Positions 20,959 to 24,629 of a DNA stretch of 28,347 nucleotides are shown in pieces. Source of the DNA: a virus (lineage: Duplodnaviria > Caudoviricetes); the IMG/VR virus record IMGVR_UViG_3300027820_000416, positions 1 to 28,347 of that record. One strand, 5' to 3'. Numbering within the stretch: the first letter of the stretch is position 1; every line of letters begins with the position of its first letter. The position numbers and the translations under genes are program-made. The notes under the pieces are model-generated. The model saw only the letters and a list, made by a program, of their open reading frames with translations. It made no database searches and was not told where the DNA came from.

Positions 20959-21177
20959 ATGAAACAGAACACCACAGAAAAAGAGTTTGCTCCTGCTGGA
21001 GTGATGACGATCAACGAGGCCTGTGAACGTCTTCGAATGGGGCGAACAAGTCTCTGGAAAAGGCTCAAGTCTGGCCAGATCGATTCTCGCAGGGATGGGG
21101 ATAACCAACGCGCTCGAGTGAAGATCTGCCGTCAATCGGTGGAAGATTATCTCGCAAATCTTCCCGACGCTTATTGA
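20959..21177 (+). CDS. Excisionase-like HTH protein
   Basis: MTINEACERLRMGRTSLWKRLKSGQI...KICRQSVEDYL pattern (HTH_17-like), next to attP. Confidence 0.8.
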   Translation: MKQNTTEKEFAPAGVMTINEACERLRMGRTSLWKRLKSGQIDSRRDGDNQRARVKICRQSVEDYLANLPDAY

Positions 21178-21188
21178 ACAATCAACAC

Positions 21189-21263
21189 CGGGGAGTGGGG
21201 AAGTCTGGTCATCCCGCGTGGCTCATGACCACGAGATCGCAAGTTCAAATCTTGCCTCCCCTA
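21189..21263 (+). tRNA. tRNA-Met(CAT), initiator-like
   Basis: Full cloverleaf: acceptor CGGGGAG/CTCCCCT (C1:U72 mismatch), D stem GGGA/TCCC, anticodon stem CGTGG/CCACG with loop CTCATGA, T arm GCAAG-TTCAAAT-CTTGC; CCA not encoded. Confidence 0.88.
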
Positions 21264-21284
21264 TTTTTCAAACCGGAGCGAACC

Positions 21285-21500
21285 ATGAGCGATTTCATCT
21301 CAATCAACGATGCACTGCCGCCGCTGCACGGAAGACTGCCGGTGACCGGGATCGAAGTTTCGCGGCTTTGCGATGTAAGACTGTCTAACGGTCGTGTTAC
21401 GCAAGCAAAATACTACCGTGACGGCCAATGGGGTGAGAGAGGGTTCGTTCTGCATGGCGTTGTTGCTTGGCGGTTTGCCGAACCGGCAAGCGTGAGTTGA
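21285..21500 (+). CDS. Hypothetical phage protein (DUF551-like N-terminus)
   Basis: RBS GGAG; MSDFISINDALP...VVAWR. Confidence 0.6.
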   Translation: MSDFISINDALPPLHGRLPVTGIEVSRLCDVRLSNGRVTQAKYYRDGQWGERGFVLHGVVAWRFAEPASVS

Positions 21501-21594
21501 TTTTTCACTGCTGAAACAAAAACCAATGAGGCCAACTGCGTGAGAGTTACGTTCATACGGAACCGAAGTCTCATGAGGAGATTAGTTGAAACGT

Positions 21595-21656
21595 GTCATG
21601 GCTAGGAAAGGCGTGGCGAGTCCGGCCCTTTCAGGTCAAGGAAAGGCAAGGTTTTT
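21595..21656 (+). ncRNA. Pentamer-periodic putative guide RNA unit 1 (12 units)
   Basis: GTC at GGC ta GGA aa GGC gt GGC ga GTC cg GCC ct TTC ag GTC aa GGA aa GGC aa GGT tttt. Confidence 0.7.
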
Positions 21657-21673
21657 AATTACAGGAACAAGAA

Positions 21674-22333
21674 ATGCGAAAAATCAAAGTGGCGGAATTG
21701 ACAGAGGATTTCTCTCTGTACCCACGGCAAAGTGTGGATTCTCAACACGTCGCGGAATTATGTGCTGCGATTGAATCGGGGGCGGAGTTGCCAGCTATCA
21801 CAATCGACAAAAAGTCGAAGCGAATCATTGATGGGTTTCATAGGTCACGGGCGGCGGTTCGACTCGATCCTGACAACGCAGAGGTGATGTGCATTGAAAA
21901 AACATACCGCACGGTTGCGGCAATGTTTGAAGACGCAATGCGACTGAATGCTGGCCACGGTCGCAGGCTGACGGCGGTTGATAAGACTCACTGTGCGGTC
22001 AAAGCCGCTGAGTTGGGGGTAGACCCTGAAATTGTTGCTGGCGTTCTTCATGTCGATGCAAGCAAGCTCGGCAAGCTAACGGTGGCGAGGACCGCAAAGT
22101 ACGGAAAGCAGGTTGTCAGCTTGAAGCGTCCGTTGATGCATCTCTCAGGGACAAAACTGACTAAATCTCAGTTCCAGGCGAATAGCGGAGCGGCGGGAAA
22201 CGATCAAAGGTTTCTGGTGAATCAGCTTCTTTCGTTTGTGCAGTCGAACTCGATTGATACGAGCGATGAAAAGCTGATGGCTTCTCTGGATAAGTTGCGA
22301 GATGCACTCAATGGGATGTTGGTTGGGGCGTGA
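21674..22333 (+). CDS. ParB/Srx N-terminal domain protein
   Basis: LYPR...LPAITI...IIDGFHRSRAA motif, then N..HG..LT..D helical region. Confidence 0.8.
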   Translation: MRKIKVAELTEDFSLYPRQSVDSQHVAELCAAIESGAELPAITIDKKSKRIIDGFHRSRAAVRLDPDNAEVMCIEKTYRTVAAMFEDAMRLNAGHGRRLTAVDKTHCAVKAAELGVDPEIVAGVLHVDASKLGKLTVARTAKYGKQVVSLKRPLMHLSGTKLTKSQFQANSGAAGNDQRFLVNQLLSFVQSNSIDTSDEKLMASLDKLRDALNGMLVGA

Positions 22334-22344
22334 AATGACAGGCC

Positions 22345-22597
22345 ATCGCGTCGAGCCTTTGCAATGCATGACGTTGCTCTGTGGGGAGAGGTGAGGCGCT
22401 GCACTCCAAGGCAAGGCAAGGTTTATTGAAACAGCAGAATTAACTGGGCGGGACGGGCCTAGCAGCGGCAAGGCTGGGCGTCGCAAGTCTAGGATTTCCA
22501 AGGCATGGTTTATTGAAACAGTGAAATTAACTCCGTGCCAATCACAGGACTGGCACGGCGGGTCGGGGCGATGACGGGAGTGTCAAGGCAAGGTTTT
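22345..22597 (+). ncRNA. Tandem array of three pentamer-periodic putative guide RNAs (units 2-4) with conserved 26-nt linkers
   Basis: Tracts 22345-22422, 22447-22509, 22532-22594; linkers GGTTTATTGAAACAG(CAG/TGA)AATTAACT at 22420-22445 and 22507-22532. Confidence 0.75.
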
Positions 22598-22620
22598 CTC
22601 TTACTTAAAGGACGCGAAGA

Positions 22621-23196
22621 ATGGCGATTGTGAATCACGTATTCCGGATCACTGGGGTCAGTCCCCTGTTGCAGAACAACCCAGCGGAGACGCTAGTTGA
22701 CAACGACGAAGGTCAGATCAAAGCGAAGAAGAAAAAGTACAACGATGCAGATGAGGCCAAAATGCGGACCTACAAAGAAGGCCGCAATTACGTGCATCCA
22801 TCAGCCGGATTTCGAGCGGGAATTTTACGGGCTGGAGTGGGAAGAAAAATCGGGAAAACCGCAGCGAAAAGCGTGCTAGCTGGTGCGGTTTTCCCGATTG
22901 AGGAGTTTGTGGTTCTCATCGATCCGAAGACGGGCAAGCCTTTGAAATCCTATGAGATTGACAAACGTCCGGTCGTCATTGGCACAAGCAGAATCCTGCG
23001 TTGCCGTCCCAAGTTTACGCCGTGGGCGTGCGACTTGGCAATGGAGATTGATGAAGACTTTGTCAGTGAGGAAACGGTTGCGGAAATGCTGAATATTTCA
23101 GGACGCATTTGCGGTCTTGGAGATTTCCGACCGGATACGAGCGGTGGAAAAAACGGCTGTGGAACGTTTGGGAGGTACACGGCGAAAGTTAAGTAA
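22621..23196 (+). CDS. Stand-alone Cas7/RAMP-like protein (putative effector of the pentamer-repeat RNAs)
   Basis: RAMP hallmarks: first strand FRITGVSPLL, VHPSAGFRAGILRA (cf. IPGSSLKG), RCRPKF..W, Gly-rich C-terminal loop GRICGLGDFRP...GCGTFGRY; RBS AAGGA. Confidence 0.72.
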   Translation: MAIVNHVFRITGVSPLLQNNPAETLVDNDEGQIKAKKKKYNDADEAKMRTYKEGRNYVHPSAGFRAGILRAGVGRKIGKTAAKSVLAGAVFPIEEFVVLIDPKTGKPLKSYEIDKRPVVIGTSRILRCRPKFTPWACDLAMEIDEDFVSEETVAEMLNISGRICGLGDFRPDTSGGKNGCGTFGRYTAKVK

Positions 23197-23208
23197 GAAA
23201 CATTTCTG

Positions 23209-23276
23209 GGACGGCAATGGCGAGACGTAGAGCGCCTCGTTTAGGAGCGTCTAGGTAGGTCAAGTCAAGGCTTTAA
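23209..23276 (+). ncRNA. Pentamer-periodic putative guide RNA unit 5 (13 units)
   Basis: GGA cg GCA at GGC ga GAC gt AGA gc GCC tc GTT ta GGA gc GTC ta GGT ag GTC aa GTC aa GGC tttaa. Confidence 0.68.
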
Positions 23277-23356
23277 CGCGGTTGGCATGGTGCCGAATCA
23301 CCCAAGGGCCTCATAAGCCTTTCGGAGATTCGCCGGATCGTTACCGGCAACCGCAC
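23277..23356 (+). tRNA. Atypical tRNA-Met(CAT)-like element
   Basis: Acceptor CGCGGTT/AACCGCA (C1:A72), anticodon stem AGGGC/GCCTT with loop CTCATAA, T stem GCCGG/CCGGC but non-canonical loop ATCGTTA and irregular D arm. Confidence 0.6.
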
Positions 23357-23390
23357 TGTCACCGGGGGTTTGTCTCTGGGTTGATGCGGG

Positions 23391-23427
23391 CTGCATGGAC
23401 GCGGGCGGTCGTCGTATGACGGAACAT
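23391..23427 (+). promoter_or_regulatory. Putative CsrA-binding GGA hairpins in the csrA leader
   Basis: CTGC-ATGGAC-GCGG and ATG-ACGGAA-CAT stem-loops with ANGGAN hexaloops. Confidence 0.55.
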
Positions 23428-23483
23428 CGAGCGCACGACGGCCGCCACTCTTTTAACAGGAATCTTATTTCAAGGAGGAAACC

Positions 23484-23669
23484 ATGTTGGTTTTGACGAG
23501 AGGTTGCGACGAAACGGTTGTGATTGGTGAAGACGAAATTCGAGTGACGGTCGTGGAAGTTCGCGGTGACAAGGTGAAGCTTGGCTTCTCTGCTGCCAAG
23601 ACGATCCCGATTCATCGAGAGGAAGTCTACGACGCGATTCAGCGTCAGGAATCATTGCCGTGCGGATAA
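23484..23669 (+). CDS. csrA: Carbon storage regulator CsrA/RsmA homolog
   Basis: MLVLTR...IG..I.VTVVEVRGDKVKLG..A...IPIHREEVY; RBS AAGGAGG. Confidence 0.93.
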   Translation: MLVLTRGCDETVVIGEDEIRVTVVEVRGDKVKLGFSAAKTIPIHREEVYDAIQRQESLPCG

Positions 23670-23693
23670 ACGGAACCGCATGACGCGGTTTCA

Positions 23694-23737
23694 CAGCAGG
23701 GATGGTGGCTCACGGTCGGGTCCGGTCAGGGATGACC
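23694..23737 (+). promoter_or_regulatory. Putative CsrA-binding CAGGGATG hairpins downstream of csrA
   Basis: CAGC-AGGGAT-GGTG (imperfect) and GGTC-AGGGAT-GACC (perfect). Confidence 0.55.
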
Positions 23738-23840
23738 TTTTCAATTTCTGGAACAAAACAAAAGGCATCCCCATGATCATCGAACTTTTAATCATCGCGA
23801 TCGCGTCTGTCGTGATCGATCTCTACAGAGGGAGGATTGT

Positions 23841-24629
23841 ATGACGGTTACCACAGAACAACCGACCGCCGAAGTTGAAACCGAACAACAATCACCCGCA
23901 TCGTTGTTGCGTTCACTATTCAAGGCTCAAAAAGCAATCGAACCGATTGTGAAGGATGCGGAGAACAGTCACTCACGATATCGCTACGTCAGTGCTGAGT
24001 TGATCATCACCGAATCCCGTGCAGCACTGCTGGGAGCCGGCCTAGTGGCCCGCCGCGCGTCCTGGAGTATCGAGAAGGATACTTTCGACGGCTACGCAAT
24101 GGTGATGATGCGTTTCATTCTCACAGATGTCGAAACCGGAGAGCAAATCGAAAACAACGTCTGCTTCCCGGCGCGTGAACGGAACGGCATGCCCTTAGAC
24201 AAAGCGGTCGCCGCTGCACTCACTGGAGGCTTCGCCTACTGGCTGCGTGACCTGCTGTTGATCCCACGCGTGGATGAGGAGATGGACCGGCGCAACGATG
24301 CGGATTTCAACCCGCAACAAGAACAGCAGGGACGACATCACGAACAGCAAACGCAACAGCAGCCACAAAATCATCAGCAGAAAACTGAGGAACCGCCAAG
24401 TTCGAAATTGGTTTGGTGGAATTGGTGCAAAGAGCGGAACTTCTCCGTTGATGACGGCAAAGGTTGGTGGCAGATCATCGAGCAATTCAACGTTCCCGTT
24501 GAAGAGGCTCAAAAGATTGCCGTTCAAACCATGAACGATGACGGCACTTACAGCTTCCCGAAGTGGTGTGATTTGGTCGAGTCGCGCTACTCGCAAAAGC
24601 AGACTGAGACTGAAGGAGCGGCGCAGTGA
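23841..24629 (+). CDS. ERF-family single-strand annealing protein
   Basis: L.KAQ..I..I.KDA.N....Y.Y...E and A...ALT....Y.L..LL.IP...E.D motifs. Confidence 0.78.
   Translation: MTVTTEQPTAEVETEQQSPASLLRSLFKAQKAIEPIVKDAENSHSRYRYVSAELIITESRAALLGAGLVARRASWSIEKDTFDGYAMVMMRFILTDVETGEQIENNVCFPARERNGMPLDKAVAAALTGGFAYWLRDLLLIPRVDEEMDRRNDADFNPQQEQQGRHHEQQTQQQPQNHQQKTEEPPSSKLVWWNWCKERNFSVDDGKGWWQIIEQFNVPVEEAQKIAVQTMNDDGTYSFPKWCDLVESRYSQKQTETEGAAQ

Follow-up and report, generated by a model that had tools for sequence, protein, structure and literature searches.

The window analysed here covers positions 1 to 28,347 of IMG/VR record IMGVR_UViG_3300027820_000416, a stretch of 28,347 nucleotides (nt) from a temperate phage of marine sediment. 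Its genes run from terminase, portal, capsid/protease and tape measure through an integrase and a helix-turn-helix excisionase-like gene to a tRNA-Met and an early region with Erf, ParB-like, helicase and SSB genes. The 287-nt gap between the open reading frames (ORFs) 21674-22333 and 22621-23196 holds three guide-like units (22345-22597), which are joined by two copies of a short AU-rich linker; a further unit lies upstream of the first of these genes and another downstream of the second. All of these units are degenerate arrays of a 5-nt repeat, YNNGG (or GGY/NN), and they flank a gene for a 191-amino-acid (aa) protein that is homologous to Vipr, the effector of the VIPR system. We consider it probable that 22345-22597 is an array of VIPR guide RNAs (vrRNAs) in which the linker would act as an unstructured, phage-specific 3' tail and spacer separating co-transcribed guides. 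VIPR is already known from preprints of 2026, and the locus is a new member of it, belonging to a clade whose accessory gene is ParB-like and whose linkers are short and unstructured.

VIPR, first described in 2026 (bioRxiv 10.64898/2026.04.26.720920), is a CRISPR-like DNA silencer; the system is also treated in 10.64898/2026.04.26.720927 and 10.64898/2026.10.15.759431. It consists of a RAMP protein of ~20 kDa (Vipr), whose fold has an RRM core, a thumb and a glycine-rich loop but no second RRM, usually a vap gene, and vrRNAs with 9-16 YNNGG repeats and an invariable 3' tail, arrays being called there from at least four units. The NN dinucleotides read double-stranded DNA with one base skipped per unit, and the complex silences the transcription of competing phages and satellites (10.64898/2026.04.26.720920). 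The same preprint shows experimentally that the YNNGG arrays of SUSP1 are VIPR guide RNAs, and vrRNAs are expected to be RNAs of ~100 nt that co-purify with Vipr; the experiments concern SUSP1 and P. fulva, not the locus of the window. In the SUSP1 structures, one Vipr protomer sits on each pentamer and holds its GGY, in a filament of ~12 protomers whose 3' end is capped.

The features of the module are as follows.

21597-21656, + strand: candidate vrRNA U0; 11 pentamers, 7/11 NNNGG in register; end motif with 1 mismatch
21674-22333, + strand: accessory gene (vap candidate), 219 aa; phrog_1033, E 8.5e-11
22334-22421, + strand: unit U1; last 8 pentamers (22382-22421) repeat-like, 6/8 in register, from the register parse
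22422-22445, + strand: linker copy 1; 24 nt, 25% G+C; T-run, then ATTGAAAC and the bases that follow it
22444-22508, + strand: tract of unit U2; 13 pentamers, 7/13 in register
22509-22532, + strand: linker copy 2; 24 nt, 21% G+C; 21/24 identical to copy 1
22529-22593, + strand: tract of unit U3; 13 pentamers, 7/13 in register
22594-22620, + strand: T-rich leader of 27 nt, carrying the vipr ribosome-binding site, in place of a third linker
22621-23196, + strand: vipr; 191-aa Cas7-like RAMP, SUSP1 Vipr homolog; phrog_4652
23206-23275, + strand: candidate vrRNA U4; 13 pentamers, 5/13 in register, the weakest of the five

The Vipr homolog

The product of 22621-23196 aligns over its full length with SUSP1 Vipr (YP_009199429; BLASTP, 27% identity, E 7e-18), the SUSP1 record being matched at E 1.4e-12, and the profile of its family matches PDB entry 36pp, 'SUSP1 Vipr protein', at E 3e-22 (profile 4-185, chain 2-190). 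An AlphaFold (AF2) model of the protein has a pLDDT of 85 and a pTM of 0.80. When compared with the PDB by Foldseek it gave 76 matches at E <= 0.001 (best E 7e-6, TM ~0.5), and the 39 matches listed, which are the top ranks with similar chains omitted, are all type VII Cas7, type III Csm3 or gRAMP. The C-terminal G-rich loop is visible in the alignments. Together, these comparisons and the predicted structure show the protein to be a homolog of SUSP1 Vipr with a RAMP fold. Given this homology and the pentamer arrays on either side of the gene, we therefore assign the locus to VIPR. The original prediction, which was made from the DNA letters and spoke of guide-like units serving the adjacent RAMP, is thus supported, the gene being a Vipr homolog and the units GGY/NN pentamer arrays, and the finding is explained by a known system.

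Pentamer arrays in the relatives

We gathered 84 Vipr homologs, with 45 loci from metagenome, 4 from viral and 3 from genome collections, the search for related loci being made with a closer subset of the homolog alignment. Close loci are the 25 whose Vipr-homolog protein is 36-58% identical to that of the window. In these, the regions before and after vipr and its partner gene consist of tandem 5-nt repeats, C-N-N-G-G. One array caller was run on 22 of them (67.8 kb), leaving out L012 and L013, which use a different triplet, and L018, which has no array; it called 61 arrays, all of them on the coding strand of vipr, and 0 antisense.

When 59 of these arrays are aligned at their 3' ends, the C is present in 47-53/59 and the GG in 53-59/59, while both N positions of the 5' units are near-uniform in base use. 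Towards the 3' end the arrays become alike: their final two or three units approach C(A/G)AGG, the very last reading CAAGG in 35/59, and a run of T follows (T at +1, +3, +4 and +5 in 36-44/59, at +2 in 32/59). Arrays have a median of 13 units and range from 7 to 20. The comparison of unit number and NN content across related phages that had been proposed for the window thus finds hypervariable NN within a conserved GG/C scaffold.

Close packing of guides is common in the clade. The next array begins within 60 nt of 16/54 distinct array ends, and tandem arrays with linkers of 18-47 nt occur in L014, L015, L017, L024, L025, L027, L028 and L031. The layout of the window's T-rich leader, in which an array is followed directly by the vipr leader, is also seen in the relatives. 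The most CRISPR-array-like example that we have seen is L014, where four consecutive guides (1759-2054) alternate with a near-identical linker of ~25 nt at a period of ~77 nt.

The five units of the window

All five units share the register and the end motif of the relatives, and the NN dinucleotides are identical between them at 3-9/22 positions. U0 ends in CAAGG and a T-run. The 5' part of U1 has no clear register, and the first four units of U2 fit better with a 1-nt shift. U4 ends in CAAGTCAAGG, followed by CTTT. In the 5' part of U3, an 8-bp hairpin with ACAGGA in its loop (22533-22558) stands in place of the first five pentamers; a terminator scan gives this hairpin 11 pairs on the minus strand.

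The unit ends, taken as the GG preceding the T-run, lie at 22421, 22508 and 22593 and are thus 87 and 85 nt apart, and the linkers with their leading GG (22420-22445 and 22507-22532) are 23/26 identical, or 21/24 without it; both the positions and the figures of the original prediction are confirmed. The linkers are part of a larger repeat of 34 nt (22412-22445 and 22499-22532, 30/34 identical), and the window contains exactly two copies of the junction 15-mer, where 0.56 matches would be expected at <=3 mismatches. For the 13-nt end motif, CAAGGCAAGG and then TTT, there are four sites at <=1 mismatch (21642, 22412, 22499 and 22584), all on the + strand; at the same stringency the reverse strand of the window and a reversed-pattern control each gave 0. 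At <=2 mismatches there are six sites, five of them in 21642-23273 and one (1454) inside the terminase gene, and allowing <=3 mismatches gives 14 matches, where 7.5 +/- 2.4 would be expected. A weaker copy, the fifth, is found at 23261. The motif with its T-run is concentrated in 21.6-23.3 kb.

The part of the window from 21500 to 23700 recurs with zero differing letters in contigs from three marine-sediment DNA runs, belonging to three studies, one of which may be the source sample; among RNA runs, none was listed as containing it. As these three contigs are identical to the window, they do not give the population-level variation of the NN positions. A 40.9-kb IMG/VR contig is near-identical to the window, with 1 mismatch over 7.6 kb, and protein searches with portal and helicase for sister phages found only 3 non-identical loci.

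The linkers are kept within a phage and differ between phages

Six array pairs from four phages allow the parts of a unit to be compared within one genome. The sequence after the array is 92% identical between the members of a pair and the scaffold likewise 92%, whereas the NN positions are identical at 21% (19/92), which is the random level; for the array pair of the window the figures are 19/22 for the linker and 1/10 for NN. The linker is kept and the NN positions are random, which argues for constraint on the linker, or for its homogenisation, during turnover of the guide information. These values fit the earlier suggestion that the array grew by duplication of units followed by diversification of NN. 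Related phages do not share the linker sequence, an outcome that the original prediction had named as counting against it: each phage keeps its own linker, as described, and the sequence differs from one phage to the next. A search of IMG/VR with the junction pattern of the window returned only the near-identical 40.9-kb contig and one chance match in a coding region.

Folding predictions give the two linkers of the window different minimum-energy structures, neither of them significant (z -1.2 and -0.4), and scans for promoter- and terminator-like sites found none in either copy. A search of 21150-23850 against Rfam at E <= 10 returned only the tRNA and one match at E 9.2, with no ribozyme.

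A proposed route from transcript to guide

We infer that the arrays would be transcribed together with vap and vipr, because U0 and U3 end 22 and 27 nt before the respective start codons and no sigma-70-like promoter was predicted on the + strand between 20500 and 24000. If the SUSP1 structures are a guide, 11-13 Vipr protomers would coat each tract of ~55-65 nt, and C(A/G)AGG-CAAGG with the U-run that follows would probably act as the invariant 3' element. The exposed AU-rich linkers could then be cut or trimmed by single-strand RNases of the host, leaving guides of ~65-85 nt. The linker is most likely the point at which guides would be separated, copy 1 probably being both U1's 3' tail and the spacer that precedes U2.

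Searches for DNA matched with a 1-nt skip in 175 kb of local loci and 79 kb of sister-phage loci found none above the controls with skips of 0, 2 and 3 nt. Exact-pattern scans of IMG/VR gave 0 matches for U3 and for U4, and 5 for U2, in contigs of 30-39% G+C, which extend to only 19-22/26; we judge these five to be chance.

Several points weigh against assigning the five units to working VIPR guides. Only 32/58 pentamers of the window are in register, compared with at least 90% in the relatives, and the four SUSP1 arrays score 12/12, 14/16, 11/15 and 6/7, so the window is more degenerate than either; some of its units may have decayed or lost their activity, above all U4 and, in its 5' half, U1. 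No structure is conserved in the linker, whereas the SUSP1 tail is a pseudoknot, said to cap the 3' end, and the roles of tail, spacer, leader and cleavage site are not separable by sequence. The ParB-like label of the accessory gene, finally, comes from one PHROG name.

Alternative explanations

The 8-mer ATTGAAAC in the linker matches the consensus of the 5' handle carried by many CRISPR RNAs (crRNAs) of types I and III, and the original prediction had drawn attention to this. The linker could then be a miniature CRISPR repeat, cut at ATTGAAAC by a Cas6-type enzyme (a host Cas6 or the RAMP itself) to give each guide an 8-nt 5' handle, an idea that gains from the effector being a RAMP and from a conserved linker alternating with variable guide parts. 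We regard it as very improbable. ATTGAAAC occurs in 2/54 distinct post-array segments, both of them the window's own linkers, and in none of the 52 others, so the likeness to a CRISPR handle is probably chance, as the original prediction had itself allowed. The core GAAAC follows 7/54 arrays against 3.5 +/- 1.7 expected, a count reached by 26/500 shuffles and thus at most a marginal enrichment, and it is not among the k-mers enriched upstream of arrays. The window contains 107 copies of GAAAC, 9 of TTGAAAC and 5 of ATTGAAAC, and two copies of the last lie within coding sequence (13379 and 13598). The related motifs that had been noted near the other units, GTTGAAAC (21585-21592), GTGAAAT (22330-22336) and AAGAAAC (23195-23201), are present as described; they are weak evidence, given how frequent GAAAC is and that two of the three overlap the stop codon of a flanking gene. 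The 13 + 22 ORFs scanned gave no match to a cas family, which also speaks against processing by Cas6, and the invariant part of the SUSP1 guides is a 3' tail and not a 5' handle. If, instead, each unit were a small gene with its own transcript, the T-run after CAAGGCAAGG would be its terminator or 3' end and the linker would hold the start signals of the next unit. A T-run (at least 4 T in the first 6 nt) does follow 37/54 distinct arrays, one terminator-like site overlaps the end of U0, and the type of promoter to be expected depends on the host. The G-rich tracts, however, have no complementary strand with which to form a terminator hairpin, the linkers hold no predicted site of either kind, and linkers of 18-47 nt leave too little room for a complete sigma-70 promoter. 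Moreover, the start codons of vap and vipr are preceded, at 22-27 nt, by the same T-runs, which transcription has to read through if these genes are to be expressed. Separate transcripts therefore seem to us quite unlikely.

Erosion offers another account of the degenerate register: the three units could be relics of vrRNA arrays that no longer load Vipr, with the linker duplication alone still visible. The low share of pentamers with GG in register suits this account, but vipr and vap are intact and conserved, the 3' ends and linkers of the units are well kept, and the sequence stands without any difference in the contigs of the three sediment runs. Internal degeneracy of vrRNAs is, besides, frequent according to 10.64898/2026.04.26.720920, SUSP1 arrays going down to 11/15. 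A dead relic is consequently improbable in our estimation. The remaining alternative would make the repeats the binding sites of another protein, either DNA iterons for the ParB-like protein, whose gene is adjacent to vipr in 20/25 loci, or a CsrB-like sponge for the CsrA encoded at 23484-23669, some 900 nt downstream of the AGG-rich units. CsrA, however, is encoded in 0/50 related loci, and a sponge for it would carry repeated GGA motifs in hairpin loops, where the triplet conserved here is GGC; the arrays keep strictly to one strand (61 against 0), and a 5-nt period with a RAMP partner fits the solved Vipr-vrRNA filament, with its one protomer per pentamer. We give this last account almost no credence. 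A VIPR guide array with short separating linkers is, then, the reading that we carry forward.

Comparison with known systems

The closest counterpart is the type II VIPR of SUSP1 (Vipr YP_009199429, vap1, four vrRNAs; PDB 36pp). The effector is in both cases a Cas7-like protein of ~190 aa whose C-terminal loop is rich in G, and vipr is flanked on either side by arrays of ~12-16 YNNGG units, which lie on its sense strand and are hypervariable at NN. Both systems are also phage-borne, carry more than one guide in tandem and have a single small accessory gene. They differ in that vap1 is unrelated to the accessory gene of the window, which is ParB-like by its PHROG name, and in the spacing between tracts, which is 24 nt, AU-rich and unstructured in the window but ~70 nt, including a pseudoknot tail of ~40 nt, in SUSP1. 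In the window clade the pyrimidine of the repeat is almost always C, where SUSP1 has mostly T, the last two or three units and the T-run are invariant, and arrays sit within the very 5' leaders of the vap and vipr genes. Degeneracy is greater in the arrays of the window, as described above.

Seven types of VIPR have been published, and the legends S17-S19 of 10.64898/2026.04.26.720920 describe other architectures, namely staggered arrays, arrays interspersed with hammerhead ribozymes (types I and V) and single guides. These share with the window the presence of several vrRNAs per intergenic region, which need to be separated; the units of the window, in contrast, have no hammerhead or other Rfam ribozyme between them and do not overlap.

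Class 1 CRISPR arrays, which are processed by Cas6 to leave an 8-nt 5' handle, resemble the locus in having a Cas7-like RAMP effector and a conserved element (24-26 nt) alternating with a variable guide, here at a period of 85-87 nt. The window differs from them in having no cas genes among the ORFs scanned and no repeats beyond the two linker copies. Its 'spacer' is a pentamer scaffold in which only 2/5 nt are informative, its handle-like 8-mer is not conserved in its relatives and, going by the preprints, the target of VIPR is double-stranded DNA read with a 1-nt skip.

A 5-nt period is also found in the trp leader RNA bound by TRAP, in which 11 GAG/UAG triplets, spaced by 2-3 nt, wrap around a protein ring. 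Here, too, a conserved triplet alternates with two free bases and one subunit is engaged per repeat. The TRAP fold is unrelated, however, and what TRAP controls is its own leader RNA; in the window, the functional part would be the variable bases, which form the guide. The idea of a TRAP-like ring at the locus is superseded by the identification of VIPR.

VIPR has been proposed as the ancestor of the RAMP effectors of CRISPR and as a new programmable code for DNA recognition. The window phage and ~25 relatives form a clade in which the accessory gene is ParB-like, the scaffolds are GGC almost throughout, the 3' end of the arrays is invariant and followed by a T-run, and very short unstructured linkers lie between the guides. 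It is a convenient test case for the maturation of vrRNAs and for the requirements on their 'tail', because the accessible text of the VIPR preprint does not treat how guides packed so closely are separated. We also offer a bolder and, on balance, unlikely model, in which the clade would be a compact, CRISPR-array-like form of VIPR. Guides of ~60 nt would alternate with a phage-specific 'repeat' of ~24 nt in the vap-vipr leaders and spacer and would mature without ribozyme or pseudoknot, CAAGG-CAAGG and the U-run serving as an assembly or stop signal and, at one end, a tRNA-like element as a signal for RNase P. Vipr would autoregulate its own mRNA, and the linker would be the counterpart of the CRISPR repeat, possibly its forerunner.

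Variants of the scaffold among related loci

Two of the close loci, L012 and L013, whose Vipr is 47-50% identical to that of the window, have arrays built on GTC/NN (CNNGT) and not on GGC/NN.

L012, 23-87 and 695-744: GTC/NN arrays
L013, 1433-1588 and 2322-2371: GTC/NN arrays

In both proteins a Trp or Phe replaces the arginine that aligns with the thumb arginine of the SUSP1 'SYRP' motif, R129 in the window. The structural preprint has thumb arginine R136 forming a salt bridge with the second G; we take R129 to be its counterpart, which assumes an offset of 2 residues in the numbering. The change of triplet together with that of the arginine may represent one evolutionary event only. This GTC/NN sister lineage is a natural experiment on the recognition of the scaffold. 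G-quadruplex formation by the repeats, which we had considered, was rejected because these two loci carry GTC in place of GGC.

In 24 more distant loci (L033-L054, L056 and L057), whose Vipr-like protein is 24-30% identical to that of the window, no sense-strand NNNGG array was called. Several of these proteins are about as identical to the window protein as SUSP1 Vipr is. By analogy with the non-canonical VIPR clusters with other repeat consensus sequences described in bioRxiv 10.64898/2026.10.21.760802, these loci may use other repeats.

Flanking genes and further observations

21189-21263, + strand: tRNA-Met (ARAGORN; Rfam tRNA, 57.9 bits, E 3e-10)

The tRNA-Met sits between the excisionase-like gene and the VIPR module and so forms the 5' border of the latter. 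The ~330 nt between it and U0 (21264-21596) contain neither a convincing ORF nor a clear pentamer register; a listed ORF, 21174-21500, overlaps the tRNA-Met and has no family match.

A homolog of the 219-aa accessory protein adjoins vipr in 20/25 close loci, in either order, and the five loci that have none adjacent are short contigs or have their match at a contig end. Besides its PHROG match, the protein has only weak hints from NCBIfam, to Noc (0.015) and ParB (0.065), both far below the cut-off. Pfam, a PDB profile search and hhalign against the other ParB-like protein of the window gave nothing significant, and a comparison with SUSP1 vap1 gave no similarity.

Just past the VIPR module, 23484-23669 encodes a CsrA homolog of 61 aa (Pfam CsrA, E 1.1e-20). 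It is not part of the module, because CsrA is found in none of the related loci. A CsrA sponge of the CsrB/RsmZ type was rejected on this ground and because the conserved triplet is GGC; the units, in addition, have no significant structure. After the CsrA gene, at 23696-23745, there is a run of 7 pentamers, 6 of them in register, with a small hairpin and a T-run at its end; a terminator-like site (23724-23737) lies within it, and the run may be a remnant array or just a terminator. A 21-nt repeat led by a T-run has copies at 21501, at 21652 and after this run.

TRNA-like elements were seen after arrays in two places. In the window, a cloverleaf with a CAU 'anticodon' (23277-23356, + strand; called by ARAGORN only) starts 7 nt past the last pentamer of U4. 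Its minimum free energy is -36.5 kcal/mol (z -3.64) and 0/200 shuffles fold as well; it has no Rfam match and no clear similarity to the true tRNA-Met at 21189-21263. It could be a processing signal of the RNase P type for the guide, or a remnant of an att site. In L019 (identical to L020), a tRNA-like minihelix at 1025-1085 follows the array downstream of vipr. This element folds no better than its shuffles and matches tRNA-Sec and mascRNA of Rfam weakly (E 4 and 0.28); it has a 7-bp acceptor-like stem and a T-arm with a UUCGA loop, and ARAGORN calls it 'tRNA-SeC'.

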